Positions 15,690 to 42,523 of a stretch of DNA of 64,000 nt are shown here, piece after piece. Every line of letters begins with the position of its first letter. Position 1 is the stretch's first letter. The translations under genes and the position numbers were made by a program. The notes below the pieces were generated by a model, which made no database searches, was not told where the DNA came from, and was given only the letters and a program-made list of their open reading frames with translations. Origin of the DNA: a virus (Duplodnaviria; Caudoviricetes). The DNA is taken from IMG/VR virus record IMGVR_UViG_3300023119_000004. One strand, written 5' to 3'.

Positions 15690-15710
15690 TAACATAGGGG
15701 TTAAAAAGAA

Positions 15711-18547: not shown

Positions 18548-18898
18548 ATGGACGAACGATTAGAAAAAGCATTAGACTTTGCCAATTATATGACTACCCT
18601 AAATAACCAAAAAAGAGTAGCAAAAGAAAAGTTCTATGAAACAAACGTCTATTATTTTAATGGTGGACAATTTAGTGTAACAAAAGAACTACTAAACTTT
18701 TGTAATATGTTGGTACAGTCGGGTCAAGAAAACGTTGTGTTAATTGACGATAATGATATTCCTGTACGTATTGAAAAAATTGATGACTTTTATAGCGAAG
18801 CATTAGACATTTATTTTACAGCAACTAACGAATATCACACAGAATACGAAAAAATTAGAACTAACAGGAAAGTATCTGGACTTGTAGAGTATGAGTAA
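18548..18898 (+). CDS. Hypothetical protein (116 aa), first gene of the enzyme island
   Basis: ATG with AGGAG RBS; stop overlaps the next start. Confidence 0.6.
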   Translation: MDERLEKALDFANYMTTLNNQKRVAKEKFYETNVYYFNGGQFSVTKELLNFCNMLVQSGQENVVLIDDNDIPVRIEKIDDFYSEALDIYFTATNEYHTEYEKIRTNRKVSGLVEYE

Positions 18899-21155: not shown

Positions 21156-22039
21156 AGATTAACATTGCAGAGCAAGATATTATATTCTTAAGTTACGATG
21201 AACCTAACTGCGAAAAGAATTATGTTGATTTATGCAAAAAAATTCCTTGGGCAAAACGTGTTCACGGAGTACACGGTTCAGATGCCGCACATAAAGCCTG
21301 TGCAGATTTGTCAGAAACAAAACACTTTGTAACAGTTGACGGAGATACTATTGTAGATCCGGAATTTTTAAATGTAGTTTTAGATTTAGACGTAATGGGC
21401 GTTGATGATGATTATCAATTTAGTTGGTGTGGACACATCGATGTTAACGGATTAAAATACGGCAACGGCAGTTTAAAAATGTGGACTAAAGAATTCGTTA
21501 AAAATATGAAAACACATGAAAACACCGACGGCAATGATGATACAAATATTGAATTTTGTTATTTTGACAACTATTACCAATTAAACGAAAACTATAGCAC
21601 TAGTATTATTAGTTCAACACCGCATCAAGCATGGAGAGCAGGATTCCGTGAAGGTGTTAAGATGAGTTTAAACAGAGGTGCAAGAGTTTCTGATCTTAGC
21701 AAAGACATTTGGTGGCAAAATTACCAAAGATTGTTAATTTGGATGAACGTTGGTGCAGATGTTACTAACGGAATTTGGTCAGTGTACGGTGCAAGGCAAG
21801 GATGTCATCTAGCATATTGTACAGATTGGGACATTTCACAAACTAGAGACTTTAAAATCTTAAATGAGATGTGGGAAAAAGAAAAAGATAAGGATGCTTG
21901 GGCATTAGATGAATCAATGGAAGAACTAGGAGCAAAATTAGGAGAAGCAGGACTGCCGATTAGTCCAAAACCTTTCGATGCTGGACAAAGTAAAATGTTT
22001 AAAGCAGTTTATGAAAACACTCCTAGAGTTATTAGATGA
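21152..22039 (+). CDS. GT-A fold (GT2-like) glycosyltransferase-like protein
   Basis: IIFLSYDEP..AKRVHGV..FVTVDGD (DxD). Paralogue of 28815..29498. Confidence 0.6.
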   Translation: MKINIAEQDIIFLSYDEPNCEKNYVDLCKKIPWAKRVHGVHGSDAAHKACADLSETKHFVTVDGDTIVDPEFLNVVLDLDVMGVDDDYQFSWCGHIDVNGLKYGNGSLKMWTKEFVKNMKTHENTDGNDDTNIEFCYFDNYYQLNENYSTSIISSTPHQAWRAGFREGVKMSLNRGARVSDLSKDIWWQNYQRLLIWMNVGADVTNGIWSVYGARQGCHLAYCTDWDISQTRDFKILNEMWEKEKDKDAWALDESMEELGAKLGEAGLPISPKPFDAGQSKMFKAVYENTPRVIR

Positions 22040-23403
22040 GCGAACTAGATAAAATTAAAGAAATAATGCCGATAGTAGAAGAGGAAACATCTCCTACTTT
22101 TTGTTTAGCAAAGTGGCATCATACTACTATCTATTTACAAACAGGTGAAACACATAGTTGTTATCATCCTGCTCCGCACCCTATACCATTAGAAGAATTA
22201 AAAGATAATCCAAGTGCATTGCATAACACTAAAGAGAAAAAAGAACAACGTAAGCAGATGTTATGTGGACAAAAGCCAGAAGGTTGTAACTATTGCTGGA
22301 AGATCGAAGCAATGGGCAAAGACTTTGTTAGTGATAGACATATCAAAACTACGAGTATCTATAGACCCGAAAGAATTACGGAAATAAAACAAAAAGGGGC
22401 GGATTTTAACATAAATCCGGAGTATATTGAGATTAACTTTAGTAATGAGTGTAATTTTAAATGCGGTTATTGCCATCCTAAGTTTAGCAGTAGATACTAT
22501 AATGAGATTAAAGAACACGGACCATATAAAATGTCAACAGCACATAGGCAAGACATTGACTGGTTTGAGTTATATGACAATGAAGAATCAAACCCCTATG
22601 TGAAAGCATGGTGGGATTGGTGGCCGGAAGTCTCCAAGACTCTTAATATTTTGAGAATTACGGGAGGTGAGCCTTTAATGCACAAGAGTACTTGGAGACT
22701 TTTCGACGAGTTGGAAGCAGATCCTAAGCCACATATTCAAATCGAAGTAAACAGCAATATGGGTGTTAAAACTAAACTAGTAGAAAAACTTGTAGAACGT
22801 ATTAACACACTAAAAGAAAAGAATTGTATTAAAAGTTTTAAACTTTATACAAGTATAGATACTTGGGGCGAACGTGCAGAATATACACGTACTGGTTTAG
22901 ATATTGAACTATGGGAAAAGAACTTAGATTACTATCTAACTAATACAAACTTTCCTGTAACATTTATGATTACATTTAATTTATTTGCTGTTACAAGTTT
23001 TAGTTTGCTATTATCAAAGATTTTAGAATGGCGTGTAAAATATAATAATGAAAATGCAACACAATGGCAACGTATTAGATTTGATACTCCACATTTAAAA
23101 GAACCTACAATCTTTGACATGAATATTTTACCTAAAGAAAAGTTTATGCCATATATGCAAGACCATTTAGATTTAATAGAGCGTTTTAAAGATGATAATG
23201 ACAACACAAAGTTTAGTAGTTTAGAATATGAAAAGTTTAGACGTGTTGTAGACTATATGGCAACTACTAATTATGAACCTGAAAAACTAGAACAAGCACG
23301 TAGAGATTTCTCACGTTGGTTTACAGAATACGATCGTAGACGCGGAACTAATCTTGTTAGTGTATTTCCAGAATTAGAGCAATTTTATAATGAGTACAAG
23401 TAA
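22036..23403 (+). CDS. Radical SAM protein with N-terminal twitch/SPASM domain
   Basis: N-terminal FCLAKW..HSCYH..GCNYC. SAM cluster motif NECNFKCGYC and ITGGEP. Confidence 0.85.
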   Translation: MSELDKIKEIMPIVEEETSPTFCLAKWHHTTIYLQTGETHSCYHPAPHPIPLEELKDNPSALHNTKEKKEQRKQMLCGQKPEGCNYCWKIEAMGKDFVSDRHIKTTSIYRPERITEIKQKGADFNINPEYIEINFSNECNFKCGYCHPKFSSRYYNEIKEHGPYKMSTAHRQDIDWFELYDNEESNPYVKAWWDWWPEVSKTLNILRITGGEPLMHKSTWRLFDELEADPKPHIQIEVNSNMGVKTKLVEKLVERINTLKEKNCIKSFKLYTSIDTWGERAEYTRTGLDIELWEKNLDYYLTNTNFPVTFMITFNLFAVTSFSLLLSKILEWRVKYNNENATQWQRIRFDTPHLKEPTIFDMNILPKEKFMPYMQDHLDLIERFKDDNDNTKFSSLEYEKFRRVVDYMATTNYEPEKLEQARRDFSRWFTEYDRRRGTNLVSVFPELEQFYNEYK

Positions 23404-24568
23404 AGATACATTTTGTATATTACCCTGGAGCCATATGTATGTCAATCCAGATGGCAATGTGTTACCTTGTTGTATTGGTAAGTGGGACAAACCTTTAGGA
23501 AATACTAAACATAATACTATTAAAGAAATTTGGAATAGCGAAGCATACAAAAAGTTACGTCTTGCATTACTAAATGGTGAACAACCAAACGAATGTTCGC
23601 AATGCTGGGCACATGAAGCAAGTGATGTTTGGAGTTTTAGAAAAGAAAATAATAAAAAGTTTTCTAAGCATTTAGGTGTGCGTGAACTAACTAATCAAGA
23701 CGGCAGTTTAGACGTAATGAAATTACTTTACTTTGATGTACGCTGGAGTAATATTTGTAATTTTAAATGTAGAACGTGTAGTGCAACATACAGTTCAAGT
23801 TGGGCAATAGAAGATAATGCGAACGGAAAGAACGTTCCTGTATATACATTTGCAGGAGGAGATTCTAATGACAGTTTGTTTGAACAGTTTAAGCCATATT
23901 TAAAAGATATTGAAGATTTTTATTTTGCAGGTGGCGAACCGTTAGTAACAGATAAGCATTACGAAATTTTAGATTATTTAATTGCTGAAAATAAAACAGA
24001 TGCAATATTACAATACAATACTAATTTAAGTAACCTAACTTATAAAGGTAAACTTGTAACAGATTACTGGAAACAATTTAAAAAAGTACAAGTAAGAGCA
24101 AGTTTAGATCATTATGGTTCTAAAGCAGAATACATTAGAGAAGGAACTGACTGGAATAAGATTATTGAGAATCTTAATTTTATTAAAAAAGAATGTCCTC
24201 ACGTAATTATGAGTTTTAATGCAGTAGTAAGTGCATTTAATATTGTTACACTTGTAGACTTTTTAGAATATATGACAGATAATGGATTTGACGTAAACAG
24301 TTGTACTTTATATAATCTTGTTGATCCTGTACATTATAGTGTTTCAGCAGTACCAACAGAAAAACTACAACACGCAAAACAACGTTTAGAAGAATATTAC
24401 AATAAAATAACTAATAGAGAACACAAAGAAACTATTAATAGTGTGTTAAAGTATATTAGCAATGTAGAATATAATCCAGACCATAATGCTATATGGGCAA
24501 ACAAAAATTCTTACTACGATCAAATACGTAAAAGAAGTTTTGCTGAAACTTTTCCTGAATTATTATAA
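23390..24568 (+). CDS. Radical SAM protein with N-terminal twitch/SPASM domain
   Basis: FCILPW..VLPCC..ECSQC. NICNFKCRTC and FAGGEP. Confidence 0.85.
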   Translation: MSTSKDTFCILPWSHMYVNPDGNVLPCCIGKWDKPLGNTKHNTIKEIWNSEAYKKLRLALLNGEQPNECSQCWAHEASDVWSFRKENNKKFSKHLGVRELTNQDGSLDVMKLLYFDVRWSNICNFKCRTCSATYSSSWAIEDNANGKNVPVYTFAGGDSNDSLFEQFKPYLKDIEDFYFAGGEPLVTDKHYEILDYLIAENKTDAILQYNTNLSNLTYKGKLVTDYWKQFKKVQVRASLDHYGSKAEYIREGTDWNKIIENLNFIKKECPHVIMSFNAVVSAFNIVTLVDFLEYMTDNGFDVNSCTLYNLVDPVHYSVSAVPTEKLQHAKQRLEEYYNKITNREHKETINSVLKYISNVEYNPDHNAIWANKNSYYDQIRKRSFAETFPELL

Positions 24569-25438
24569 ATGCAAGATTGGTTCTAATTGATCTGATTGAC
24601 GCAATCTAAGTTCATAGTTACAACTATCAACAAATCTTTGTCCTGAACTGTAAATATGAAACTTTGGAACACCTTTACTTGCACCGTTCATCATTGTAAC
24701 CCACTTTTTAAAACTTTCGGCTACTGCGGCATCGGTTTCGTCACGCCAGTTATGTTTAAAAACTGCTTTGAGATAATTGTAATATTCAACTATATGAGGA
24801 TGACCGTCTTGAAAATCTTTGTTTACAGTTTTTCTATCTTGTTTAAATTTCTTTTGAATATCGTTGTTCCAAAGAACTTCGTAAAAACTAGGCTGTATAG
24901 TTTCAAGAACTGGTCTGTAGATGTCTGCTAGTTTTTTAATTTTATCATGATGTTGTGTGCGTCTGTTTAAGTTCCATTGATCGGTGTAGTCAACAATTTT
25001 CATCATTTGCAAGAAATGAAATTGTGTTTTATGTTTTAGATGTTCGTTTGCCGCATAGATGAATGCAAAATCTCTAACGTAAGCACCATACTCACTAAAC
25101 CAAGTTTGCACCCACTTTTCGTCATACTCGCCTTGTGTGTAAATGTTACCCGGCACAAGCCAACCGTCACGTTGAGGAAGATATCTATCCTCTCTACAAA
25201 CATTAGTCCATTGTACAATAACTAGGTCTTCGTGTGTAAAATTATATACAGCATCTGCCTGCATTAGCGAATTAAAAATATAATGATTACCTGCACCCGA
25301 ACGACCAAAGTTTCTAAACTCAGCCTCAGGAAATTCTGCTCCGATAACATTTGCCCAAGTACCCCAAATATATGAAGTAAAACTACAACCAAATGTAAAG
25401 ATTCTTTTTGGTTTATTATGAATTAATTGTTTTGCCAT
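24563..25438 (-). CDS. SGNH-hydrolase-like protein
   Basis: IFTFGCSFT (block I variant), FGRSGAGN, C-terminal DGHP. Confidence 0.55.
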   Translation of the reverse strand: MAKQLIHNKPKRIFTFGCSFTSYIWGTWANVIGAEFPEAEFRNFGRSGAGNHYIFNSLMQADAVYNFTHEDLVIVQWTNVCREDRYLPQRDGWLVPGNIYTQGEYDEKWVQTWFSEYGAYVRDFAFIYAANEHLKHKTQFHFLQMMKIVDYTDQWNLNRRTQHHDKIKKLADIYRPVLETIQPSFYEVLWNNDIQKKFKQDRKTVNKDFQDGHPHIVEYYNYLKAVFKHNWRDETDAAVAESFKKWVTMMNGASKGVPKFHIYSSGQRFVDSCNYELRLRQSDQLEPILHL

Positions 25439-26684
25439 CTGCTGTATCTCTCATGTATTTACACAAATCAAAAAATTGTGCTCTTGTATGTTTACCTGCT
25501 AACATTGTTTTAAAATTATTTAACAGTTTATCACTTTCTGCATATTTCCATTTGACTTGTTCTTCCCAAGTCATATTTCTTAATTGAAGGACTACTCTTT
25601 CTAGTTCTGCATAAATCTTTTTCCAGCGTTTATAATCGTCTGGTTCGTCATCAAAACTATAATCAAAGCAGTCAAAAAGTTGATAGCCGTACTCTTGCAA
25701 CTTTTTGTTTGCACCTTGTTGCCCCCAAATAATAAATGGTTGCATATGAAACATTGATCTAAATGTTTTTTCACTCCAAAACTGACTAGTACCTTGCCAG
25801 TTTTCAGCAAACGTTTCGTTAACTATTTGAAATAACGTTTGATCGTGTAAGTGTGTATTAAGGAACATAGCATGGTTTGTAATAAAATCTTCTGTGTCTG
25901 CAACTAAAGGTAATACAGTTTTATTCCAGCGTCTTAAGTGTTTAGGTTCAATACCGTGGTCGCCTGGAATTTGACTAACATAACCATCCCAACTAAAATA
26001 TTTAGAATTAAAGTTTCCGTGACTTATAAGGCCGTCAAACAAGTAGTCACCGTGAAATATCTCCCAAGCAGACAATGTTCTATGTGGTCTATTAACTCTA
26101 CTTAAACTTAAGAATAGTTTATTCTTAAATTTTGACTTGGTTCCTTTTTTACTTGCTTTTAATCTTTTGTTTGCTTGTTCATTAATATCACCGTGTTGGT
26201 CCACAATAAGATTTGCACCTTGCACACCAAACAACATAGATTCAAAATTGTTAAAGCACATTAGTTTAATGCTTCTAGTAATTCCGTGTTCTTGATTGTA
26301 TCTTTTTAAATTATCATGATCTAGCATATTACTAGAAATATAAATTACTCTTTCGGGATCAACACCGTGTTCTTTACAATTAAAATACAGTACATCAAAA
26401 AATGGTTGATCGTAAATTGTGCTAAAGCCCTCGGTACTTGCATCAAAGATAAAAAATGTTTTCTTATCCTTTTTCAGTTGACGTAGATGAGATAAACGCA
26501 TTTGTCTAAAAATTGGTGCAGTTTTTGGCCATCTAGGATATTTAATCAATCCTTGATAAATGGTAATGTCCTTGTGTACAATACCACTTTTGTTAAATTC
26601 TTCTTTTAAAAACTCATAGGTTAGAGTGTTTTGCGGACACGATAAAAAATCGTTATGTTGAAAAAAGCCAATGATGCGATTCAT
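25416..26684 (-). CDS. Hypothetical protein, possibly GT-B-type glycosyltransferase-like
   Basis: Long ORF with C-terminal IVNETF..FWSEKTFRSMFHMQPFIIWG pattern; neighbours ugd and GTs. The ATG at 26684 is preferred over the TTG at 26699. Confidence 0.45.
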   Translation of the reverse strand: MNRIIGFFQHNDFLSCPQNTLTYEFLKEEFNKSGIVHKDITIYQGLIKYPRWPKTAPIFRQMRLSHLRQLKKDKKTFFIFDASTEGFSTIYDQPFFDVLYFNCKEHGVDPERVIYISSNMLDHDNLKRYNQEHGITRSIKLMCFNNFESMLFGVQGANLIVDQHGDINEQANKRLKASKKGTKSKFKNKLFLSLSRVNRPHRTLSAWEIFHGDYLFDGLISHGNFNSKYFSWDGYVSQIPGDHGIEPKHLRRWNKTVLPLVADTEDFITNHAMFLNTHLHDQTLFQIVNETFAENWQGTSQFWSEKTFRSMFHMQPFIIWGQQGANKKLQEYGYQLFDCFDYSFDDEPDDYKRWKKIYAELERVVLQLRNMTWEEQVKWKYAESDKLLNNFKTMLAGKHTRAQFFDLCKYMRDTADGKTINS

Positions 26685-26698
26685 GTTTCTGGGTTCCA

Positions 26699-26730
26699 AT
26701 AAATACTATGTATTTATATGCGTACTTAAT
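26699..26730. promoter_or_regulatory. Bidirectional late promoter: perfect inverted repeat ATAAATAC-TAT-GTATTTAT
   Basis: 26699-26717 gives TAAATA on both strands between divergent genes. An additional TAAGTA lies on the minus strand (GTACTTAAT 26722-30). Confidence 0.65.
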
Positions 26731-26744
26731 TAACGGAGAATAGT

Positions 26745-27917
26745 GTGAATATTGGATTTATTGGTTTGGGTAAATTAGGTTTACCTTGTGCAGAAGTTAT
26801 TGCAGAAAAAGGACACAATGTCAGCGGTTACGACATAGTTGATGTTAAGAGCGATTTAGTTTCAGTAAAAGAAACTATTAAAGAAGCAGTACATGATAGA
26901 GATATTGTTTTTATTGCAGTACCTACACCCCATCATCCAGACTATGACGGTAAGCAACCGACAGCACATTTAGAACCAAAAGATTTTTCGTATGATATTG
27001 TAATTGATGTAGTACGCGAAGCAAACAGACATATGAATAACAGTCAATTACTTGTGCTTATTAGCACAGTTCTTCCTGGTACAGTACGTAGAGAATTTGT
27101 ACAGCATATTACTAATCCAAGATTTGTTTATAATCCATACTTAATTGCAATGGGTACAGTTGCTTGGGATATGGTAAATCCTGAAATGGTTATGATTGGA
27201 ACCGAAGACGGATCTAAGACAGGCGATGCAAAAGAACTTATTGATTTTTATAAAACAATAATGGAAAACAAACCAAGATACGAAGTTGGTACTTGGGACG
27301 AATGTGAATGTATTAAAGTTTTTTACAACACATTTATTAGTACTAAAATTGGATTCGTTAATATGATTCAAGATGTTGCAGAACGTCAAGGTAATATTGA
27401 TGTTGATGTAGTTACTGAAGCATTATCAAAAAGTACACAACGTATAATGGGTCCAAAATATATGAAAGCAGGTATGGGCGATGGCGGTGCTTGTCACCCA
27501 AGAGATAACATTGCTCTACGTTTTATGGCACAACAATTAGACTTGCAATATGACCTATTTGATGCTATAATGAATGCACGTGAAGTACAAGCAAAAAATA
27601 TGGCAAAGTATTTGGTAAAACTTGCTTCTGCAAATGACTTGCCAATTTTGTTAAATGGAATTGCGTATAAGCCTGATGTTCCATACAAAGACGGAAGTTA
27701 TAGTTTGCTTGTAGGACACTACTGTAAAGAATTAGGATATCACTGTATTGAAGTCGATCCTTTAGCAAGTCCGCAAAAAGGTCCTTTTAGTGCAGTTGTT
27801 TTACTAGCACATCCTAAACTTTATTGTTTCCTCAACGACGATAGTATTGTTGTTGACCCGTGGAGAGAATTTAAGTCTGATACGCTTAAAGTGTATCATT
27901 ATGGTAATACAAGATGA
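26745..27917 (+). CDS. ugd: UDP-glucose/GDP-mannose dehydrogenase family protein
   Basis: IGFIGLGKLGLP Rossmann motif, FIAVPTP, ISTVLPG, catalytic GGACHPRD. GTG start with GGAG RBS. Confidence 0.85.
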   Translation: MNIGFIGLGKLGLPCAEVIAEKGHNVSGYDIVDVKSDLVSVKETIKEAVHDRDIVFIAVPTPHHPDYDGKQPTAHLEPKDFSYDIVIDVVREANRHMNNSQLLVLISTVLPGTVRREFVQHITNPRFVYNPYLIAMGTVAWDMVNPEMVMIGTEDGSKTGDAKELIDFYKTIMENKPRYEVGTWDECECIKVFYNTFISTKIGFVNMIQDVAERQGNIDVDVVTEALSKSTQRIMGPKYMKAGMGDGGACHPRDNIALRFMAQQLDLQYDLFDAIMNAREVQAKNMAKYLVKLASANDLPILLNGIAYKPDVPYKDGSYSLLVGHYCKELGYHCIEVDPLASPQKGPFSAVVLLAHPKLYCFLNDDSIVVDPWREFKSDTLKVYHYGNTR

Positions 27918-28822
27918 AAAAAATTTTAATAGTTGGTGATAGCAATGCACTAGGTGAGTGGGGAACAATTATTCCTGGGCCGGGGTGTGCTAACAACAAC
28001 GATCCAGAAGTGTTTCGTCCTTGGAATAAAGAAAAATATTTAAGCGGTGATTTTCCTAAACCTTTTCAAGTTGTTTGGCCAGGCTTTGGTTATCATTTAG
28101 ATCAAATGGGTCATTGTACAGTTAACTATGCTTTTGGCGGAGCAGGAAATTTCGAAAGTATTTTTAAAGTTGAAGAAGCACTAGGATTAGCACCTTGCTT
28201 TACAAGTCCTGTTTTTTATAATCCTGATTTAATTATATGGATGCTAACAGAGCCTTGTAGAGATTTAAAAAGAAGTTTATGGCCAGATGAAGCAGGCTTG
28301 TATGATTTAGAGAAGTATCATAAACAAAGTGATCCGCTAGTAGCAGAAGCAAAGTCAATTAAAGAAATAAATGACGGCCTGCTTAAAATTGCACTAGACG
28401 GCGCACAAAAAATTTATGAAGAAACTAATATTCCATGGTTAGTAATTGAAGGCTGGGGAAAATTACCAGAAGATATTTCACAATACACTTTTATTAAACA
28501 CGTTCATCGCGGATGGATGGATAGTATTATAGAACGTCCGGTTCCGTTAATTAGTTCTTGGGGTACAGCAGAAAATGTACGTAGACGTAGACCCGACCTA
28601 ACAGAAAATGCGGCAGATGCATTACGTATGTTTGCTAGACAACGACCTGAACTAAACATTCCGGATATTCCAGAAGGTATAGAAACAGAATTTAGAAGCA
28701 TTGTTGAAGATTACGAAGTTGTTATTGACCTAATGAATAAAAGTGATAAGTTTCCAGATAACTGTCATGTTGATAGACATATACAAAAACAACTAGCAGA
28801 GGATATTGCAAAATATGTATGA
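27914..28822 (+). CDS. SGNH-hydrolase-like protein
   Basis: ILIVGDSNA (GDS block I), FGGAGN, C-terminal DNCH (DxxH). Confidence 0.55.
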   Translation: MKKILIVGDSNALGEWGTIIPGPGCANNNDPEVFRPWNKEKYLSGDFPKPFQVVWPGFGYHLDQMGHCTVNYAFGGAGNFESIFKVEEALGLAPCFTSPVFYNPDLIIWMLTEPCRDLKRSLWPDEAGLYDLEKYHKQSDPLVAEAKSIKEINDGLLKIALDGAQKIYEETNIPWLVIEGWGKLPEDISQYTFIKHVHRGWMDSIIERPVPLISSWGTAENVRRRRPDLTENAADALRMFARQRPELNIPDIPEGIETEFRSIVEDYEVVIDLMNKSDKFPDNCHVDRHIQKQLAEDIAKYV

Positions 28823-29498
28823 TATAGTTTTTATAAGTTGGCAAGAACCCAATGCAGATGAAGTATATGCAAAGTTAAAAGAAAAGTTTCCTATGGCTAA
28901 ACGTGTTCATGGTGTAAAAGGAATTCATAATGCACATATTGCCGCGGCAAAAAAATGTTTTACAAAAATGTTTTGGGTGGTAGACGGTGATGCTATTATT
29001 AAAGATGACTTTGATTTTAGTTACGAAGTTGACGAGTACAATGTAGATACAGTTCACGTATGGCGTTGTGAAAATCCTGTAAATGATTTAGTTTATGGGT
29101 ATGGCGGAGTAAAGTTATTACCTCGGTCATTAACACTAAAAATGAATACTGAGACAGTTGATATGACAACAAGTATTAGTGATAACTTTAAAGCAATGGA
29201 TCAAGTTAGCAATATTACTGCTTTTAATACAGATCCTTTTAATACTTGGAAAAGTGCATTTAGAGAATGTGTAAAATTGTCTAGTAAAATCATTGATAGA
29301 GAAGAAGATGAAGAAACTTTATTTAGACTTACTGACTGGTGTCAAAAAGGCATGGACAGACCATTCGGAAACTATTGTATCGATGGTGCTCGCCGTGGTA
29401 GTGACTTTGGTCTTGCTCACCGTAATGAGCCTGAGTCTTTAAAACTTATAAACGATTGGGATTGGTTGCATGAGCAATTTTCAAAAAATTCCATTTGA
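28815..29498 (+). CDS. GT-A fold (GT2-like) glycosyltransferase-like protein, paralogue of 21152..22039
   Basis: IVFISWQEP..AKRVHGV..FWVVDGD, and TWKSAFRECVKLS versus AWRAGFREGVKMS in the paralogue. Confidence 0.6.
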   Translation: MYDIVFISWQEPNADEVYAKLKEKFPMAKRVHGVKGIHNAHIAAAKKCFTKMFWVVDGDAIIKDDFDFSYEVDEYNVDTVHVWRCENPVNDLVYGYGGVKLLPRSLTLKMNTETVDMTTSISDNFKAMDQVSNITAFNTDPFNTWKSAFRECVKLSSKIIDREEDEETLFRLTDWCQKGMDRPFGNYCIDGARRGSDFGLAHRNEPESLKLINDWDWLHEQFSKNSI

Positions 29499-30450
29499 CA
29501 AGATTACACGCTTTGGTCAAAAAACAATGCTTGACGAAGGCGTGTTTTCTGTTAGTTGGATACTAGGAAGATTTTGTAATTACAAATGTAGTTACTGCTG
29601 GCCTTATGCTAATACAGACAAACCAGATCACTTTAGTTTGCAGACATATAAACATACAATAGATGAAATTAAACGCCAAGCAAATGATAACGGATTTAGC
29701 AAATTTCATTTTAGTTTTAGTGGTGGTGAACCAACAGCATACAAACACCTACTTGAACTAATTCAATACTATGAAGATTTTAAAAGTCCATATTTAAGTA
29801 TTCACATGACAACTAATCTATCTCCTAACAAGTCATGGTGGATGCGTTGGTTAGATAAAACCTTTGTTATGGATAGAAGAAGTTTAACAGCAAGTTATCA
29901 TGCAGAGTTTGCTGACGAAAAAGAATTTGGTGATAAGTGTTTAATGCTTATGGAAAATAATACACTTGTAACAGTTAATCAAGTTATGGTTCCAGAACAC
30001 TTTAACGAATATTACGATAGATGTGCAAGATTAAATGAAAGGGGAATTCATGTCACACTCAAGCCGCAATCAGATCCTACTGCGTCATTTGTGGTCTCTG
30101 GTTATACAGATGATCAACTGGAAAAATTACAAACAGGATTCCCGCAAGAAATCGACGGAGAAGAAGTCGCACAAGTTCGCCTCGAAACAAATGATGGAAT
30201 AAAATACGAAATAGATCAAGCAGAACGGTTTAATGCTTTTGGATTTAATAAGTTTAAAGGGTGGAACTGTAATGCAGGATATCAAAGTTGTATTATACGT
30301 GGTAATGAAGTTAAGAGGGCATATAGTTGTAGTGACGAACCATTAGGTACACTTACACACGGTTTTACGCTGTTTAAGACACCATCTAAATGCGTTACTG
30401 ATACTTGTGTTAGTAGTGCAGATAACAAAATACCAAAGGTAAAACTATGA
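29470..30450 (+). CDS. Radical SAM protein with C-terminal SPASM/twitch-like Cys cluster
   Basis: RFCNYKCSYC and FSGGEP. C-terminal WNCNAG..YSC..KCVTDTC. Confidence 0.85.
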   Translation: MSNFQKIPFDKITRFGQKTMLDEGVFSVSWILGRFCNYKCSYCWPYANTDKPDHFSLQTYKHTIDEIKRQANDNGFSKFHFSFSGGEPTAYKHLLELIQYYEDFKSPYLSIHMTTNLSPNKSWWMRWLDKTFVMDRRSLTASYHAEFADEKEFGDKCLMLMENNTLVTVNQVMVPEHFNEYYDRCARLNERGIHVTLKPQSDPTASFVVSGYTDDQLEKLQTGFPQEIDGEEVAQVRLETNDGIKYEIDQAERFNAFGFNKFKGWNCNAGYQSCIIRGNEVKRAYSCSDEPLGTLTHGFTLFKTPSKCVTDTCVSSADNKIPKVKL

Positions 30451-30761
30451 AGAAGTTATGGGAACGCCTCAAGGCGCATGATAAAAAAGTAAAAGAAGCA
30501 CAAGCAAATTTTAAAGTTTCTGATATAAAGAACAAATACGTTAGAGCATTTATGTGGATATTCATGCTTAAATTTGTATGGGATATTACTACATTATTTG
30601 AAAAATATTTTCCTATGAAAAAAGTATATAAGGTATTAGGTTTAGGTTGGACAAAGTTAGGCTATTATGTGTTTTGGTTATTATGGTTTATATTTGTAGT
30701 TGTATCATTGTATTACATATTAGGCGAAGAATTATTTGATCAACTGGTAAATGAATTATGA
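30447..30761 (+). CDS. Small membrane protein (104 aa)
   Basis: Two hydrophobic/aromatic segments; ATGA coupling on both sides. Confidence 0.55.
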   Translation: MKKLWERLKAHDKKVKEAQANFKVSDIKNKYVRAFMWIFMLKFVWDITTLFEKYFPMKKVYKVLGLGWTKLGYYVFWLLWFIFVVVSLYYILGEELFDQLVNEL

Positions 30762-31360
30762 AAATTGAATTAGATGATATTATGTTTTGGATGGACGCTA
30801 TACGCAATAGCGAAGACAAGTATCGCACACTTGAAAGTTTTTGGAAAGGACAGTTGCGTAGTAAACGTTGGTTAATAGAACAACTAGAACAATCAGCATT
30901 GCCTAGCAAAAATAGAATTGTAATACACGGAGGGTGGAACGGTGTGTTAGCAAGTATGATATTCAATAGCGATATTAATGTTGAACATATTACTTCGGTA
31001 GATATAGATTCAGAGTGCGAACAAATTGCTAGTACAATGAACAAACGTCAAGAGATGGAAGGACGTTTTAAATCAGTTACAGCAGATATGTGTGATTATA
31101 AGTATGAAGCAGATATTGTCATTAATACAAGTTGCGAACATATTACACAAGAACAGTACGAGCAATGGTTAAGCAATGTTCCACAAAATGCTACTATAGT
31201 TTTACAAAGTAATGACTATGATGAGTTAGATGAGCATATTAACTGTTCAAAGGATTTAATGAACTTTTCAGATAAATCTAAAATAAAAGTTTTTACTGGT
31301 GCAACACTTAGGCTCGATAAGTATAATAGATTTATGATTATAGGTAAGAAACGTGTATAA
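30758..31360 (+). CDS. Class I SAM-dependent methyltransferase
   Basis: IVIHGGWNGVL motif I, ITSVDID motif II, VINTSCEH. Confidence 0.7.
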   Translation: MKIELDDIMFWMDAIRNSEDKYRTLESFWKGQLRSKRWLIEQLEQSALPSKNRIVIHGGWNGVLASMIFNSDINVEHITSVDIDSECEQIASTMNKRQEMEGRFKSVTADMCDYKYEADIVINTSCEHITQEQYEQWLSNVPQNATIVLQSNDYDELDEHINCSKDLMNFSDKSKIKVFTGATLRLDKYNRFMIIGKKRV

Positions 31361-34211: not shown

Positions 34212-34887
34212 TATTACGTGGAAAGAAGTAGACTATAAAAATAATAGTCTAAACAATATAGCAAGAAATATTACTGAATTTCACACAGGAAATTGTCAGG
34301 GAGATATTTCATATTCTAAAACAGAAGGCACACCAATTGGTACAATTTTTCTTGAAGAAAAATATACAGTTAAGGATATGGCTATTTTAAATAGTTTATT
34401 AAATTATAATGTTTACTTTAGAAAAAATACAGAACAAACACTTAAAACAGATTTAAAACCAGACTGTGCTGTTGTATTAGCAAGTGGCAATACTGTAGAT
34501 CAAATTGAATCTAAGTATATGTATGTTATTGATATTAGTCCTAAGGCTTTACAAAATCATCAAAAAGCATTTAATATGACATCAACAGAATATTACGAAC
34601 TTGATGTGTTTGATTTAGAAGAAGTGCGTAAGTTTTTGCGTAAGTGCAAAGGTGAAACAGGATTATTTTGTTTAAGTAATATATTTTTATATTTGCCTAA
34701 TTGTATTATGTTTGATGCAAAAGCAAGACTAACAAGGCAAAATAAATTAATGCAAGTACTAGCAGAAGATAAAATTGAATGGTATGTTGATATGTGTACT
34801 GTTAACGGTATATATTTCCAAGCCCCTGCTAGAGAACTAGTTGATATGAAACTTGATGATAAGTTTAAGGTGTTACCATGGATCTAG
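34204..34887 (+). CDS. Hypothetical protein, possible SAM-dependent transferase fold
   Basis: AVVLASGN followed by YVIDIS (Rossmann-like motifs I/II). The ATG at 34204 is preferred over the GTG at 34147. Confidence 0.4.
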   Translation: MNNITWKEVDYKNNSLNNIARNITEFHTGNCQGDISYSKTEGTPIGTIFLEEKYTVKDMAILNSLLNYNVYFRKNTEQTLKTDLKPDCAVVLASGNTVDQIESKYMYVIDISPKALQNHQKAFNMTSTEYYELDVFDLEEVRKFLRKCKGETGLFCLSNIFLYLPNCIMFDAKARLTRQNKLMQVLAEDKIEWYVDMCTVNGIYFQAPARELVDMKLDDKFKVLPWI

Positions 34888-35519
34888 TCGAACAGTTTAA
34901 TTGGATTAGACATGAAAGCGGACTTGCTACATTACGATTAGATGTACCAAAGCCAAGCGGTGCTATGCGAGAAGAAATATTGCAAAGTTTACATCTTGCA
35001 GTACCACATAGAGAAGATTATGGTAAAGGGTGGCGTAGTTTAACACTACACGGTCATAGTTCAACAATGACCGACAGTGATCAAGCATACAAAGAAAAGG
35101 GATTTATGTTAGGAGAAAAAACTTGGACTGATGTTGCAAAGTATTTTCCTTTAACTAAAAAATGGATTACTGAGAATATACCTTTTAAAAAGTACGGTAG
35201 GGTAAGAATAATGATAGTTGACCCGGGTGGGCATATTAGTCCGCATAAAGACTATCCAAATGGACAACTGTTAGCCGGTATTAATGTTGCTATAACGCAT
35301 CCAGAAGGTACAATATTTGATATTGAAAATTATGGTAATGTAGAATGGCAAGAAGGCGAAGCAAGACTAATTGATTTAGGAAGTATGCACCAGGTTATGA
35401 ACAAAAGTAATGAACCAAGGATACATATAATTATACACAGCGAACCAATTGATGATTGGAGCGGTGTTATGCAACTAGTTTGCGACAGTTACGGAAAGGA
35501 ATATAATGGATCAAAATGA
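34878..35519 (+). CDS. Asp/Asn beta-hydroxylase-like 2OG-Fe(II) oxygenase
   Basis: RVRIM..PGGHISPHKD (HxD), distal SMHQVMN..PRIHII. Confidence 0.8.
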   Translation: MDLVEQFNWIRHESGLATLRLDVPKPSGAMREEILQSLHLAVPHREDYGKGWRSLTLHGHSSTMTDSDQAYKEKGFMLGEKTWTDVAKYFPLTKKWITENIPFKKYGRVRIMIVDPGGHISPHKDYPNGQLLAGINVAITHPEGTIFDIENYGNVEWQEGEARLIDLGSMHQVMNKSNEPRIHIIIHSEPIDDWSGVMQLVCDSYGKEYNGSK

Positions 35520-36162
35520 AATAGAAAGAGCGTTGCGTTGGCAAAGCCTAGTTAATCTAGGTAACCAAGTAAAACTCAAATGGCATATTGATCATCATGC
35601 TGTTGAACAGCAGTTAGAACAGTTTAAAAATAACTGGTGTCCTTATAATGTTAAAAAAGACAAGCATAATAATCGTTGGGGATTACCTGTAACTAGTCAT
35701 TCAGGTGATGTAATGGACAATTATCATCTTAATAGTTTTGGCCATATGCAAAAATATCACAATGTTGAAATGAAGGAAGAAAACTTTAATACACCTACAG
35801 AAGTGTATAATAAAATTCCTGAAATTGCAAAACTAGTAGATATATTTTCGCCAGACATCGGGCGTGTACATTTATTACGTATTGATCAAGGTGGATTTTT
35901 CCCACCACATAGAGATTTTCACGGAACTAGTCCAGAATACTTTAGACTATTAGTAGTATTTGGCAGATGCAGTCCTGAGAATTATGTACAGTTAGTTGAC
36001 GGTAAACCTTTATATCCAGAAGCAGGGTATGTTTACTTCACAAACTTCCAATTAGATCATAGTGTGTTTAGTTTTAGTGATAACTTGTATAGTCTTATTT
36101 TAACAGTAAAACTAAATGAGCGTACACAAAAATTAATACTAGACAACACAATGGCAGAATGA
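35506..36162 (+). CDS. Asp/Asn beta-hydroxylase-like 2OG-Fe(II) oxygenase
   Basis: RVHLL..GGFFPPHRD (HxD), distal LDHSVF. Confidence 0.7.
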   Translation: MDQNEIERALRWQSLVNLGNQVKLKWHIDHHAVEQQLEQFKNNWCPYNVKKDKHNNRWGLPVTSHSGDVMDNYHLNSFGHMQKYHNVEMKEENFNTPTEVYNKIPEIAKLVDIFSPDIGRVHLLRIDQGGFFPPHRDFHGTSPEYFRLLVVFGRCSPENYVQLVDGKPLYPEAGYVYFTNFQLDHSVFSFSDNLYSLILTVKLNERTQKLILDNTMAE

Positions 36163-37064
36163 AATTAGAGTACCAAAACAAAGCAAAAGAAGAATGGTTT
36201 CTTGTTAGTTGGACATTAAGTAACAAGTGTAACTATCGCTGTTCCTATTGTCCGGATCATTTACACAACGGAAGTACTGGACAACCCCAATGGGAAACAG
36301 TAAAACGTTTTGTTGAAAATTTTAAAGTACCAAAAGAAATCTGTTATAGAGTGAGTGGCGGCGAACCTACATACTGGAAACATTTTTTAGATCTTGCTAA
36401 ACTTGTAAAAAAACAAGGTCACACATTTAGTTTTCTAACTAACGGCAGTCAGCGTGTAAAATATTACAAAGAAATAAGCAAGTACACAGACGGTTATATT
36501 ATTTCATACCATCCAGAGTTTGCTAATCTAGAACATATTAAAGAAGTAATACAAGAAAGTTATTGTCCTGTATTTGTTAATCTAATGTTGTCGCCTGAAA
36601 ACTTTAATGAAATGTTTGACATTGCAGAAGAACTATATTCAAGCAGTGATAATGTTAGTGTATGGCCTAAAATAATTTTAGATAAGTCTAACATAGATGC
36701 AATTACAAATACACCAGCAAACTACACACAAGACCAATTAGACACAATTAAGAATTGGCCTTTCTTTACTAACCTTCCAGACGCACAGTTACACAGAGGA
36801 GAATTGCTGTTAGATGATTCACCTGTAACTGCCAATGATTTAATATCAGAAAGTAAAAATCGTTTTAGGAATTGGAAATGTTGGGCAGGCATTGATGGAA
36901 TTAATATTGATATGTGGGGAAACATATATAGAGCAGACTGTCAATATGGCGGCGCATTAGGAAATCTAGAACGTTACAAATTACCCGAAAAAGAAATTGT
37001 ATGTGGTAAAAGTGTATGTAGTTGTTTGAGCGATATATACATTAGGAAAGAGTTATGCGAATAA
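36159..37064 (+). CDS. Radical SAM protein with C-terminal SPASM/twitch-like Cys cluster
   Basis: NKCNYRCSYC and VSGGEP. C-terminal WKCWAG..ADC..VCGKSVCSC. Paralogue of 29470..30450. Confidence 0.85.
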   Translation: MKLEYQNKAKEEWFLVSWTLSNKCNYRCSYCPDHLHNGSTGQPQWETVKRFVENFKVPKEICYRVSGGEPTYWKHFLDLAKLVKKQGHTFSFLTNGSQRVKYYKEISKYTDGYIISYHPEFANLEHIKEVIQESYCPVFVNLMLSPENFNEMFDIAEELYSSSDNVSVWPKIILDKSNIDAITNTPANYTQDQLDTIKNWPFFTNLPDAQLHRGELLLDDSPVTANDLISESKNRFRNWKCWAGIDGINIDMWGNIYRADCQYGGALGNLERYKLPEKEIVCGKSVCSCLSDIYIRKELCE

Positions 37065-37603
37065 TTGTAACAGGAAACCCAAACTACGAAGGCCTTTCTA
37101 AAGGAATCTTTGAAGCATATAATCATAATAATGTTGAGTTTATAGGTAGACACAATGGTTGGGATATGACTGACTTAGATGCTATTGCTGACTATGTTAA
37201 AAATGCAGATGTGTTTGTTAATAGTTTATTAATACCAGACAGCGGACAAGAAAAACTGTTGCATAAAGTTTACAAAACGTTTAAAGGGTTACATATAATT
37301 AACATTTCTAGTACAACAAGTTACTGGCGTGACGGTTATAGTCCAGAAGGTTATCTTGAAAGTAAAACTGCGTTAGACGAAGCAAGTAAAATGTATTCAA
37401 ACTATTGTGCATTTGGGAATAGTAAAGTTCGTGTAAGCAATATTGCTTTTGGTCAACTTGATTCTAAAACAACAAACAATAAAAGTGATAGGAAAAAGAT
37501 TAGTTTGCTTGACGCAGGTAAACTTGTTAAATGGCTAATTGATAGTCCACGTAACATGAACATTCATTATCTTGCTGTTGATCCTATTCAAACAGACTAC
37601 TAA
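37055..37603 (+). CDS. Short, divergent SDR-family (NAD(P)-dependent) oxidoreductase
   Basis: IIVTG start, DVFVN, IINISS and YLESK (YxxxK). Only 182 aa. Confidence 0.6.
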   Translation: MRIIVTGNPNYEGLSKGIFEAYNHNNVEFIGRHNGWDMTDLDAIADYVKNADVFVNSLLIPDSGQEKLLHKVYKTFKGLHIINISSTTSYWRDGYSPEGYLESKTALDEASKMYSNYCAFGNSKVRVSNIAFGQLDSKTTNNKSDRKKISLLDAGKLVKWLIDSPRNMNIHYLAVDPIQTDY

Positions 37604-38702
37604 GTTCAGGACAATGATCAAGTACGTTTGTATTGCGTAACTTATCGAGATCTTTTGTATACTGTACAAAAGTTTCAGTTAAATTTGTATCATTATTTGT
37701 ATAATTTACAAAATCAAATTTGTGTTCAATGTTTTCTAAAATGCTGTTAGGTAAAACTCTTGGATTTAGATATGGCGGTTGTACAACTACATTATTAAAG
37801 TAGATTGACCAATTATCTTTTTTAACACTATCGTACCATTCTTGAATTTTATGTAAGTGTGCAATATTATACGCCATAACAGTAACAGCAATAATAACTC
37901 TATCAAAATTGTAGTGTTTTAGATTTTCGTTTAATTGCTCAAACGTAAAATTATTTCCACCTCTAATATATTCGTATAGTTTACCAGTTCCTTCAACACT
38001 TACGGTCCATTTTGTATGGCCAAACTGTTTTGCAAGTTCGTGTACTTCATCGTCAACAATGGTTCCATTAGTAGTCCAATCAAGTGTAATGTTTTTAGCA
38101 ATACCTAAGTCAATAAACTTTTTAAGAATAGTTTTGTTTGAAGGTTCCATATACGGTTCCCCGCCTTTGATGCTTAGGTAACGCAAGTTCATAAATGGTG
38201 TAGGATCTTCAAATAGTTTTGCAATAATTTGATCGCTTTTATTTGTATAACCAAACTCTGGATGATCTACTGGCCTATTATAATCTTTGTTTAGTTCAGC
38301 CAATTTCAATTCTTCTTTGACCCAAGCACTTGAACTAATACCATTGCACATACGACATTTCAAATTACAGATATTGCTCATATTGAATTCCAAAAAGTAT
38401 ATGTCATGGAAGTTTTTGGTGTAATCGTAATTGGTATTTTCCAACATTGGATTTAGTATATCACGGAAGAATAAACGCCTGCTATGACCTACTGTAGCCT
38501 CTTTTAAGCGGCATTTATCGCACTCGGGTGGTAACTGACCCTTACGTATAGAATCCTTTGTGTATGACGCTGTAATGCTGTTTAAGACGGTGTTTAAAGA
38601 CGATTCTAGCACGTTACCGTAGCGATTTGCATACACTCCGTCGGGTACAATATCACCATTAAAACGTACCAAAATACTATGCCAAGGTGCGTAACACTTC
38701 AT
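37584..38702 (-). CDS. Radical SAM protein with N-terminal twitch/SPASM domain
   Basis: KCYAPW..ECDKC. NICNLKCRMC and IKGGEP. The second twitch Cys pair is replaced by PDG. Confidence 0.85.
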   Translation of the reverse strand: MKCYAPWHSILVRFNGDIVPDGVYANRYGNVLESSLNTVLNSITASYTKDSIRKGQLPPECDKCRLKEATVGHSRRLFFRDILNPMLENTNYDYTKNFHDIYFLEFNMSNICNLKCRMCNGISSSAWVKEELKLAELNKDYNRPVDHPEFGYTNKSDQIIAKLFEDPTPFMNLRYLSIKGGEPYMEPSNKTILKKFIDLGIAKNITLDWTTNGTIVDDEVHELAKQFGHTKWTVSVEGTGKLYEYIRGGNNFTFEQLNENLKHYNFDRVIIAVTVMAYNIAHLHKIQEWYDSVKKDNWSIYFNNVVVQPPYLNPRVLPNSILENIEHKFDFVNYTNNDTNLTETFVQYTKDLDKLRNTNVLDHCPELSSLFE

Positions 38703-41066: not shown

Positions 41067-41502
41067 ATTTATCTCCAAAGGCACTTTTTAAATCGTCTTG
41101 CATTTTTTCTAATACCATGTGAGGTGGATATAAGTTTACATTATCCCAATCAACAAGTGTCATTTTGTCACCGTTAATAATAATATTACTTAGTACCCAG
41201 TCACCGTGTGCGTATGGTGATGTTTCGTTAATGTTGTCAATACAGAAGTGATAAATCTTTTTCATAAACTCAGGAGTATGTTGAAATTGACTAGCAGGAG
41301 TACCTTCAATTGGTAGCATATCAATATACATTTCATTGTCGTCACAATGTTGTCCTATAATATATCCTGGATTTACTTCTTCAACTAGATCAACGTGTTC
41401 TTCTAACCAATGTGGATCACTAAAGTGCCAGACCTTTCTATAACGGTCTTCAAGTTTATATACGCTTCTTTTCTTTTGTTTATTTTCTTTAATCAAGTCC
41501 AT
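41047..41502 (-). CDS. Small APH/choline-kinase-like phosphotransferase
   Basis: YAHGDWVLSNII (HGDxxxxN catalytic loop) and LVDWD metal-binding motif. Confidence 0.7.
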   Translation of the reverse strand: MDLIKENKQKKRSVYKLEDRYRKVWHFSDPHWLEEHVDLVEEVNPGYIIGQHCDDNEMYIDMLPIEGTPASQFQHTPEFMKKIYHFCIDNINETSPYAHGDWVLSNIIINGDKMTLVDWDNVNLYPPHMVLEKMQDDLKSAFGDKFDPASL

Positions 41503-42523
41503 ATGCTTTTGCCACCGGTAGTAGATAATCTTTAATATGCATATTTCTAAAGTTATCTAATCTTGTTATACATCTTTTAAAGTGTTCAATAATTTCAGGA
41601 TCAGCAGGATCATTAGACCATTTGTCAACTCCTTGGAATTGCTTTTTAAGTTCGTCAGGAGCATTTTTAATATGTAACCAATCAGGTAACATTAATAAGT
41701 TTTCAAAAACTTTCCAACCTTGTTTGTCTGCATACTCTTTAATATCATCATAGAACCATGCGTTTAAAATACTAATTGTTGGACTAATATCAACTTTACA
41801 AAAGTCTGCCCAACGTAGTGCGTTACGTTCTACTTCTTCCCATTTAGAGCCATGACGAATATAATCAATACGTCTATCAGTTGCATCTAAAGAAAAACTC
41901 ATAATAACCATTTTAAATTCTCTTAAAAGTTTTTCAAGTTTAGGATTCCAAATAGTGCAGTTAGTGTTAAATCTAATTGTTACAGATCTATCAAGTTTTT
42001 CTAAAAAAGTAGGCAAGTGTTTTACCATCATAGGTTCGCCACCTGTCATATACACTTCTTGTAAAGGCAAATCTAATAATTTATCAAATGCTTCTTCAGT
42101 ACCCCAGTTAAAATTAGGAACTTCAAGAATACCATGTAATGGTTCAATGCCTGCTTTTTTCATAGCAATGGCTTCTTCAGCAATACTGCTACTGCTCATA
42201 TGCCAACAACTAATACATTTTAAATTACAACTATTACCTACACGAATATCTAAATGACTAAGACCAGGGCCATACCTGCGTGTTTTTTGACGCTGACTTC
42301 CTAGTCCTCGTTCTTCCATATGTTGACAACGTTTACAAGCATCTGGCCATTCATCTCTTTCCATTTGCTCTCTAACGCCTCTATGGAATTCACTGTCGTG
42401 CCATTCTTGTGGAGTATGTGTACGGATGTTATACTTGTTAGGTGGTTCTAAACTCATACAACAAAGACGATACTGACCGTCAGTTCCAACATTAATTTGG
42501 TTATCTAAATATTTGCATCTCAT
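41489..42523 (-). CDS. Radical SAM protein with N-terminal twitch/SPASM domain
   Basis: MRCKY..RLCC..ACKRC. NSCNLKCISC and MTGGEP. Confidence 0.85.
   Translation of the reverse strand: MRCKYLDNQINVGTDGQYRLCCMSLEPPNKYNIRTHTPQEWHDSEFHRGVREQMERDEWPDACKRCQHMEERGLGSQRQKTRRYGPGLSHLDIRVGNSCNLKCISCWHMSSSSIAEEAIAMKKAGIEPLHGILEVPNFNWGTEEAFDKLLDLPLQEVYMTGGEPMMVKHLPTFLEKLDRSVTIRFNTNCTIWNPKLEKLLREFKMVIMSFSLDATDRRIDYIRHGSKWEEVERNALRWADFCKVDISPTISILNAWFYDDIKEYADKQGWKVFENLLMLPDWLHIKNAPDELKKQFQGVDKWSNDPADPEIIEHFKRCITRLDNFRNMHIKDYLLPVAKAYGLD

Follow-up and report, generated by a model that had tools for sequence, protein, structure and literature searches.

An island of eight radical SAM genes beside the tail-fibre genes of a marine jumbo phage, with an N-terminal twitch family set among glycosyltransferase-like genes

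Introduction

A described counterpart of the locus analysed here is the hypervariable tail-fibre region of pelagimyophages, which carries GT8 and UDP-glucose dehydrogenase genes together with 'radical SAM cassettes' that differ from one close relative to the next, that is, genes of radical S-adenosylmethionine (SAM) enzymes (Zaragoza-Solas et al., 2020; PMC7029224). That work is a genome description in which the radical SAM genes were left unclassified and modification of the host O-chain was proposed without test. Radical SAM proteins in which a twitch domain precedes the catalytic core are curated as the family NF033640 (N_Twi_rSAM, twitch domain-containing radical SAM protein), and our literature search found no functional study of this family or of N-terminal twitch or SPASM domains. 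Here, we describe a 64,000-nucleotide stretch of the IMG/VR virus record IMGVR_UViG_3300023119_000004 (hereafter the window), in which eight radical SAM genes, confirmed with hidden Markov models (HMMs), lie within 20.5 kb.

The window is part of a 97.9-kb contig. CheckV estimates a completeness of only ~27% for this contig, and its source is therefore taken to be a jumbo phage. The phage is uncultured, marine and T4-like, and the radical SAM island lies in its tail-fibre region. We argue that the island may be expressed late and act in the cytoplasm, tailoring a glycan by radical chemistry, probably on the virion, and we give this reading about an even chance of being correct. Islands of this type are not unique and recur in many marine phage contigs. 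What is new here is a domain-order swap detected at the profile level, an orthogroup tree, arguments from promoter motifs and predicted solubility, and a collinear cassette in a cultured phage. Genes are referred to by the first coordinate given in Table 1.

Results

Eight radical SAM genes, five with an N-terminal twitch domain

The motif CX3CX2C was found in all eight open reading frames (ORFs) at the starts proposed in a preliminary description of this DNA; ORF 32302 begins with GTG, and an ATG follows three codons downstream at 32311. Seven of the eight scored 32-47 bits against Pfam Radical_SAM (PF04055), above the gathering score of 29.5. The eighth, 22036, scored 28.0 bits, slightly under that threshold, and its membership is supported by its match to NF033640. 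The eight intact radical SAM genes of the preliminary description were thus recovered, and their grouping is not a chance pattern. That description had also named characterised families, MoaA and the activating enzymes among them, to which the proteins might turn out to belong. All such models scored far under their cut-offs: the best matches of the eight proteins to equivalog HMMs for MoaA, glycyl-radical activases, viperin and QueE were 16-43 bits against cut-offs of 131-325, models for maturases of ribosomally synthesised and post-translationally modified peptides (RiPPs; NCBIfam models, e.g. the AlbA, PqqE and CteB families) gave 15-40 bits against 265-850, and the anSME model was likewise far below its cut-off.

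Five of the eight matched the curated full-length NF033640 model end to end and above its cut-off of 170 bits (Table 1); 31353, 29470 and 36159 fell under it at 62, 36 and 20 bits. A second run against the contig confirmed these assignments. These are the same five in which an N-terminal auxiliary Cys cluster had been reported. With NF033640, they share the N-terminal C...C(C)...CxxC twitch, CNxKCxxC, GGEP and later conserved motifs, GGEP being invariant in the alignment of the five. Their auxiliary cysteines follow the pattern C-x17-19-C(C)-x40-55-CxxC, of which the first Cys and the CxxC are invariant in the five paralogues and invariant or near-invariant in alignments of 109 family members. 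The four-Cys motif is complete in 22036, 23390, 32302 and 41489. For 37584, the alignment has a gap at the middle Cys (the CC position), which leaves three auxiliary ligands; the substrate-binding cluster of MoaA likewise has three Cys. The N-termini of 23390, 32302 and 37584 scored above the Pfam SPASM cut-off of 21.5, and that of 41489 scored below it (16.7 bits). For 32302, we found >4,700 homologues at E<=1e-10, and its orthologues in marine contigs are 66-82% identical. The N-terminal twitch layout, which the preliminary description called atypical and functionally uncharacterised, is not new, being already curated as NF033640; the second adjective stands, in that no characterised member was found.

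In an AlphaFold2 (AF2) model of 23390 (pLDDT 95.5, pTM 0.92), the four Cys are grouped about a β-hairpin and the helices after it, which we take to be the layout of the BtrN twitch domain. Fold searches with the N_Twi model returned BlsE (Z 12.9), anSME (12.8), CteB (12.0), SkfB (12.0), MoaA (11.7) and viperin (11.6), scores that amount to a tie, and Foldseek agreed. These searches cannot discriminate between substrates, because only the common core was found.

Profile comparisons identify 31353 as a domain-order-swapped relative

The three remaining radical SAM proteins had been described as carrying a SPASM/twitch cluster at the C-terminus. On profile evidence, only one of them, 31353, is demonstrably a twitch enzyme; its C-terminal Cys are conserved across its family. 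In hhalign comparisons, the last 104 residues of the 31353 family aligned with the first 100 of the N_Twi profile at 95.1% probability (E 3.4e-8), and the two cores aligned at 99.4% probability (E 1.8e-21), whereas the crossed controls gave probabilities of 7.5% and 0.1%. Since C-terminus aligns with N-terminus and core with core while the crossed comparisons fail, 31353 is, at the profile level, a domain-order-swapped relative of the N-twitch family, and the earlier phrase 'mirror architectures' is literally true of this pair.

For the other two, the claim survives in part: the cysteines are kept, but neither protein matches a twitch profile. C267, C308 and C313 of 29470 are present in 96-98% of 46 homologues; in 36159, C241, C282 and C287 are present in 98-100%, and C261 and C289 in 80%, again of 46 homologues. 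Neither C-terminus matched Pfam SPASM, and hhalign to the twitch profile gave 5.4% probability. Cys conservation makes an auxiliary cluster at these C-termini plausible.

Ancient paralogues in a large, mostly viral family

Identity is 22-29% among the five N-twitch paralogues but 60-77% between each of them and its orthologue in a syntenic Tara contig. A maximum-likelihood tree built from 73 members of the family resolved the five into separate, well-supported orthogroups, a topology that requires five independent placements of the window proteins. Each orthogroup includes other phages, and two, that of 37584 among them, include Pseudobdellovibrionaceae genes. By this phylogeny the five paralogues are ancient. 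The pattern of paralogy fits five different, individually conserved jobs, because the orthogroups are separate and old and identity is low between paralogues and high between orthologues. The preliminary description had taken eight copies in one phage to imply sequential, substrate-specific radical steps. The conserved orthogroups agree with the idea of distinct jobs, but eight copies are in themselves unexceptional, as arrays are common in the N_Twi family, and a sequential order of the steps would be conjecture.

A profile search with the five paralogues against 1.84 billion proteins returned 33,074 representatives at E<=1e-3 and 6,834 at E<=1e-30, the latter being 50%-identity clusters from phages and bacteria. 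In the ESM Atlas, the clusters closest to the family are 93-100% viral. Two or three complete N_Twi modules are fused in many family members, giving proteins of 800-1,400 amino acids (aa), a hint that paralogues act next to one another. The island recurs with unchanged gene order on a Tara Oceans contig whose orthologues are 68% identical, and the 21-kb locus there contains eleven Pfam-annotated radical SAM genes. In four Tara contigs (L001-L004), a pyruvoyl-type SAM decarboxylase (PF02675) and a class-III aminotransferase are inserted beside the 32302 orthologue, at ~9.6-12.4 kb of each locus, and three extra radical SAM genes are present. The island thus gains or loses cassettes between near relatives. 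A near-identity search with the island DNA against 50,697 phage records gave no match.

A scan of bacterial genomes with single proteins gave no match and a profile scan was needed, which found carriers in Bdellovibrionota, Elusimicrobiota, Saprospiraceae, Cytophagales, Flavobacteriales, Hyphomicrobiales, Polyangiaceae and Paenibacillus. Three loci from metagenome-assembled genomes (MAGs), two from a Haliscomenobacter MAG (L022, L025) and one from the MED685 'Gammaproteobacteria' MAG (L081), showed the richest synteny but were rejected as evidence of bacterial origin. All three have the same island, and a T4-type gp23 capsid gene lies on the same contigs, which identifies them as T4-like phage sequence binned with bacterial genomes; in the 1.2-Mb MED685 bin, three contigs carry gp23. 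Genuine arrays, with 9-19 N_Twi matches per genome and no gp23, were found in Bdellovibrionota MAGs (L066, L014, L053), where the neighbours include AcrB, a Na+/H+ antiporter, a B12-radical SAM gene and an amidohydrolase. One array, L014, adjoins a DegT/DnrJ/EryC1 sugar aminotransferase (263 bits), the only such case, and in L066 an AspH domain is fused to a homologue of window gene 43292. Overall, the bacterial context was uninformative on function, the best recurrent neighbour family occurring in 11/80 loci.

Glycosyltransferase-like neighbours and cultured carriers

Behind the fibre genes, from ~17.2 kb to ~49.6 kb, the genes are tightly packed and most of them overlap; the radical SAM genes are part of this run. 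To the left of the first radical SAM gene lie two GT8-like genes. A profile of 37 phage homologues matched glycogenin-1 and -2 in the PDB (E 2e-5 to 1e-4), the alignment covering ~110 residues at the N-terminus and including the DxD motif; the assignment is distant and made at the profile level, because neither 18891 nor 19723 matches Pfam as a single sequence. The paralogues 21152 and 28806 form a second family, with an invariant D60-x-D62 in the alignment. When the 28806 model was searched with VIA, nearly all of the top 50 chains had a GT-A or nucleotidyltransferase fold (Z 5.5-8.1), matching residues 1-141. Foldseek also returned mostly this fold, weakly (E >= 0.07), and a PDB profile search with the family gave spurious designed-protein matches only. 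A further sugar gene, 26745, encodes a putative protein of the nucleotide-sugar 6-dehydrogenase family. It scored 168 bits against TIGR03026 (cut-off 189.8), its Pfam C-terminal domain is also under the cut-off, and it carries GxGxxG and GGAC250HPRD motifs, C250 presumably being at the position of the catalytic Cys of UDP-glucose dehydrogenases.

Co-occurrence was assessed in 80 IMG/VR viral loci, within ±10 kb of a 23390 homologue. The commonest N_Twi neighbours were the GT-A-like family of 21152/28806 (64/80 loci) and then the GT8-like family of 18891/19723 (53-55/80). They were followed by the 29470-type radical SAM protein (38), the 24563 family (34), the 26745 dehydrogenase (28), the 17608 (28), 18548 (24) and 25416 (23) families, and the fibre-like protein 15711 (16).

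A minimal, collinear version of the cassette is present in RsoM2USA, a cultured and fully sequenced jumbo phage of Ralstonia, where all of its genes are annotated as hypothetical. Its order is 17608-like, 18548-like, GT8-like, GT8-like, an unmatched gene, GT-A-like, N_Twi, GT-A-like and 30758-like (the last at L169:15186-15731). The single N_Twi enzyme, RsoM2USA_349, is a 22036-type orthologue (316 bits) and is flanked on both sides by transferase-like genes; the GT-A-like genes are RsoM2USA_350 and _348, and the GT8-like genes RsoM2USA_353 and _352. Vibrio phage K566 has two NF033640 members above the cut-off and three slightly below it; ~3 kb from its radical SAM cluster is a gene whose annotation reads PagP, the lipid A acyltransferase (L167, 15742-16191), with NadV just beyond. 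KVP40 has three full-length relatives under the cut-off, and one of these lies two genes downstream of a gene citing PF00534, a glycosyltransferase family.

Late-promoter-like motifs and predicted solubility

The motif ATAAATA is strongly depleted, with 11 copies in the 64 kb, and six of them lie 12-40 nucleotides (nt) upstream of gene starts on the correct strand, within the few intergenic gaps that exist. They precede 11210 (by 18 nt), the fibre gene 15711 (by 23 nt), the 26745 and 25416 operons in the divergent 26.7-kb gap, 46577 and 50871. Between 17.2 and 24.6 kb, the left part of the island lacks an ATAAATA of its own and follows fibre gene 15711. By analogy, the sites look like a T4-type late-promoter set common to the fibre genes and the island operons, and they might serve to map late operons on the rest of the contig. 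The sequence TATAAATA has one copy in the 64 kb, against 11.2 expected, located 12 nt upstream of 26699.

A hydropathy scan predicted a membrane segment in none of the island enzymes and, in the island, only in the small variable ORF 30447. The high-scoring windows of 22036 and 23390 correspond to the radical SAM core (strand 273-280 in the 23390 model).

Other genes of the island

The window begins inside a giant ORF (3-11189) that probably encodes a VrlC-like giant structural protein of the kind noted in pelagimyophages and is a candidate glycan acceptor. Cys makes up 0.1% of its composition, and Thr, Asp and Asn are abundant. Five AspH-family cupins scored 31-55 bits against PF05118 (cut-off 22.6). 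Three blocks are invariant in the 24563 family, G-C-S, G-x-G-N and D-x-H, and they follow one another as would be expected of SGNH esterases/acyltransferases, a likeness that profile searches did not confirm. The 25416 family has a conserved C-terminal block, SEKTFK...GYKTF...DESYD, and its copies are interleaved with the radical SAM genes in the related phage contigs L022 and L025. Neither family matched Pfam or, in profile searches, the PDB, the Pfam search with 34 members of the 25416 family giving only noise. We considered 25416 as a GT10-type transferase and 24563 as an SGNH esterase from their motifs by eye and claim neither. For 27914, an Atlas feature search gave weak DUF6071 and GDSL-lipase leads only.

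Table 1. Features of the tail-fibre region and the radical SAM island, with coordinates in the window.
Feature	Coordinates	Strand	Basis or remarks
Giant structural ORF, 3,728 aa, open-ended	3-11189	+	Window begins inside ORF; fibre genes downstream
Three paralogous tail-fibre-like genes	11828-17198	+	PHROG tail fibre/virion structural matches; paralogy
Two conserved cassette genes	17608-18498, 18548-18898	+	Before GT8-like pair; also in RsoM2USA
Two paralogous GT8-like glycosyltransferases	18891-19736, 19723-20565	+	Profile match to glycogenin
Putative GT-A-fold (nucleotide-diphospho-sugar transferase-like) protein	21152-22039	+	Paralogue of 28806, E 1e-26; invariant DxD
N-twitch enzyme, 455 aa	22036-23403	+	NF033640 322 bits, positions 1-398; CX3CX2C at residue 139; Cys 23, 42, 84, 87
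N-twitch enzyme, 392 aa	23390-24568	+	NF033640 371 bits; Pfam SPASM 62.5 bits, residues 9-73
Conserved gene, SGNH-like motif pattern by eye	24563-25438	-	Family alignment
Conserved gene	25416-26699	-	One copy here, 4-5 per island in related phages (L022/L025)
Putative nucleotide-sugar 6-dehydrogenase family protein	26745-27917	+	Pfam UDPG_MGDP_dh_N 69.6 bits, central domain 68.9 bits
Putative GT-A-fold protein	28806-29498	+	Paralogue of 21152; AF2 model pLDDT 71.6
Radical SAM protein with conserved C-terminal Cys triad	29470-30450	+	Pfam Radical_SAM 47 bits
Methyltransferase-like protein	30758-31360	+	Pfam Methyltransf_25 E 0.003, under cut-off
C-terminal-twitch radical SAM protein	31353-32339	+	Pfam SPASM (PF13186) 25.4 bits, residues 237-317
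N-twitch enzyme, 443 aa	32302-33633	+	NF033640 423 bits
AspH-family 2-oxoglutarate oxygenase-like cupin	34878-35519	+	PF05118
Radical SAM protein, 29470 paralogue, conserved C-terminal Cys	36159-37064	+	27% identity to 29470, E 9e-17
N-twitch enzyme, three auxiliary Cys	37584-38702	-	NF033640 228 bits
N-twitch enzyme, 344 aa	41489-42523	-	NF033640 218 bits; Cys 3, 21/22, 63, 66
Other AspH-family cupins	42592-43290, 44718-45386, 45822-46562, 47830-48423		PF05118
Flavin-dependent halogenase family protein, right island edge	48407-49633	+	Pfam Trp_halogenase 249 bits; phrog_2928
Six ATAAATA sites	11186, 15682, 26699 (+), 26711 (-), 46559 (+), 52272 (-)		Upstream of gene starts

Discussion

In the glycan-tailoring reading, the GT8-like and GT-A-like transferases, partly fed by the nucleotide-sugar dehydrogenase, would assemble a sugar decoration in the cytoplasm. 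Each radical SAM paralogue would use its SAM-binding [4Fe-4S] cluster to generate a 5'-deoxyadenosyl radical, which would abstract hydrogen at a particular sugar position, the twitch cluster acting as an electron conduit or a substrate anchor. Such chemistry would edit the sugar without oxygen, for example by oxidation, epimerisation, deoxygenation, decarboxylation or C-C or C-methyl formation, and the AspH-like oxygenases, the halogenase-family enzyme and the methyltransferase-like protein could add further edits. The likeliest acceptor would be a virion protein, either a fibre or the giant structural protein, with a host envelope glycan as the main alternative. We favour the virion protein because the promoter motifs resemble late promoters, the island sits in the fibre module and membrane machinery is absent. 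The preliminary description had proposed sugars or fibre peptides as substrates. The gene context favours sugars, because transferases and a dehydrogenase are present, peptide-recognition domains are not, the promoter motifs are of late type and there are no membrane enzymes. Substrate class, individual reactions and acceptor are what we infer from this context.

Several observations weigh against radical glycan tailoring. No NF033640 member has a known substrate. Within 10 kb, the bacterial arrays lack the phage GT8-like and GT-A-like families, and cultured isolates (e.g. Hoeflea, Agaribacillus) carry a single orphan N_Twi gene with no conserved sugar neighbours. The GT-A assignment of 21152/28806 comes from a medium-confidence model with borderline Z scores and would cover a transferase or a nucleotidyltransferase. 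Nothing in the window was recognised as a nucleotidyltransferase, 4,6-dehydratase or sugar aminotransferase, and ~12 island proteins have no family assignment, among them 17608, 18548, 24563, 25416, 27914, 37055 and 43292. Among the structural neighbours, the sugar-nucleoside enzyme BlsE ties with peptide enzymes. Finally, AspH-family oxygenases and Trp-halogenase-family enzymes are best known for acting on protein or peptide side chains.

This last point bears on a different outcome, in which the targets of the island would be amino-acid side chains, either in the structural proteins of the phage, namely the fibres or the giant protein, or in a ribosomal peptide, altered by cross-linking, epimerisation, methylation, hydroxylation and halogenation, in a RiPP-like or protein-hardening pathway. 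The solved SPASM/twitch enzymes are mostly peptide maturases and stand at the top of the fold search, the island holds five AspH-family oxygenases and a Trp-halogenase-family gene, and it is co-oriented with the fibre genes under a common late-promoter motif. We nevertheless consider this outcome unlikely. No island protein matched an RRE/PqqD-like peptide-recognition domain in Pfam, and no precursor-like small ORF was found in operons whose genes overlap end to end and leave no intergenic room. RiPP-maturase models scored at least 10-fold under their cut-offs, and N_Twi genes accompany glycosyltransferase-like genes and no peptide gene.

Slightly less probable still is that the product goes onto the host envelope, remodelling the core or O-chain of lipopolysaccharide (LPS) against superinfection or against progeny sticking to debris. 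An envelope target would agree with the presence of LPS core transferases in GT8 and of the lipid A hydroxylase LpxO in the AspH family, and also with the PagP-annotated gene near the radical SAM cluster of K566. The same case has been made for the GT8 and UDP-glucose dehydrogenase genes of this type of region (PMC7029224). Set against this, the island has no flippase, polymerase, ligase, initiating transferase or polytopic membrane protein, and its enzymes are predicted to be soluble. The promoter motifs are of the late class and common with the structural genes, and the one PDB match of the GT8-like profile was to glycogenin, a GT8 enzyme that glycosylates protein.

The least supported reading, and an improbable one, is that the island acts on a nucleic-acid base or a diffusible small molecule, such as a sugar-bearing hypermodified base or a nucleoside- or aminoglycoside-like metabolite: the nucleoside-antibiotic enzyme BlsE is nominally the top structural neighbour and extra genes for a SAM decarboxylase and a class-III aminotransferase occur in syntenic relatives, but the BlsE score ties with those of unrelated enzymes, the island sits in the fibre module, Pfam scans of the island found no DNA-binding or base-flipping domain, and the window has no export or resistance gene.

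If radical tailoring of a glycan is correct, it would be the first functional assignment for a family of thousands, mostly viral among those seen, and phage particles or their hosts would bear glycans made by radical chemistry unknown in any virus. This would bear on host recognition, on the resistance of fibres to degradation and on the discovery of oxygen-free sugar-editing enzymes. A broader and more tentative idea, which we think possible but somewhat doubtful, is that N_Twi proteins are a large unrecognised class of oxygen-independent sugar editors. Phages and Bdellovibrio-like predators would deploy 5-19 of them to make a heavily rearranged glycan on attachment fibres, and the N- and C-terminal twitch forms would be circular-permutation variants for different positions on the same glycan. 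The question is testable in cultured phages: RsoM2USA carries the eight-gene minimal cassette with a single N_Twi gene, and Vibrio phages (K566, KVP40-like) carry several copies.

Comparison with known systems

In chlorovirus PBCV-1, the virus-encoded GT-A enzyme A64R makes structural-protein glycans, and it is a fold neighbour of 28806 (Z 6.6); for the window phage, glycosylation of the virion is a proposal. We know of no radical SAM enzymes in PBCV-1 virion glycosylation. In layout, the window resembles the pelagimyophage region (PMC7029224), where a giant structural gene is likewise followed by tail fibres and sugar genes. At the level of the enzymes, the partial TIM-barrel core of anSME, CteB, SkfB and BlsE superposes on the N_Twi model over ~210-220 residues (model ~110-364) at 14-18% identity. 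In these enzymes, the auxiliary domains lie at the opposite chain end from those of N_Twi, and the substrates are peptides or a nucleoside. BtrN, the founding twitch enzyme and the 2-deoxy-scyllo-inosamine dehydrogenase of butirosin, is absent from the top fold matches and, unlike N_Twi, has its twitch domain at the C-terminus. Its residues 187-257 nevertheless align weakly with the N-terminal N_Twi profile (E 2e-3). BtrN acts on a sugar-like cyclitol and, like the N-twitch proteins, has one auxiliary cluster built in the order Cys, hairpin, Cys, helix, CxxC.

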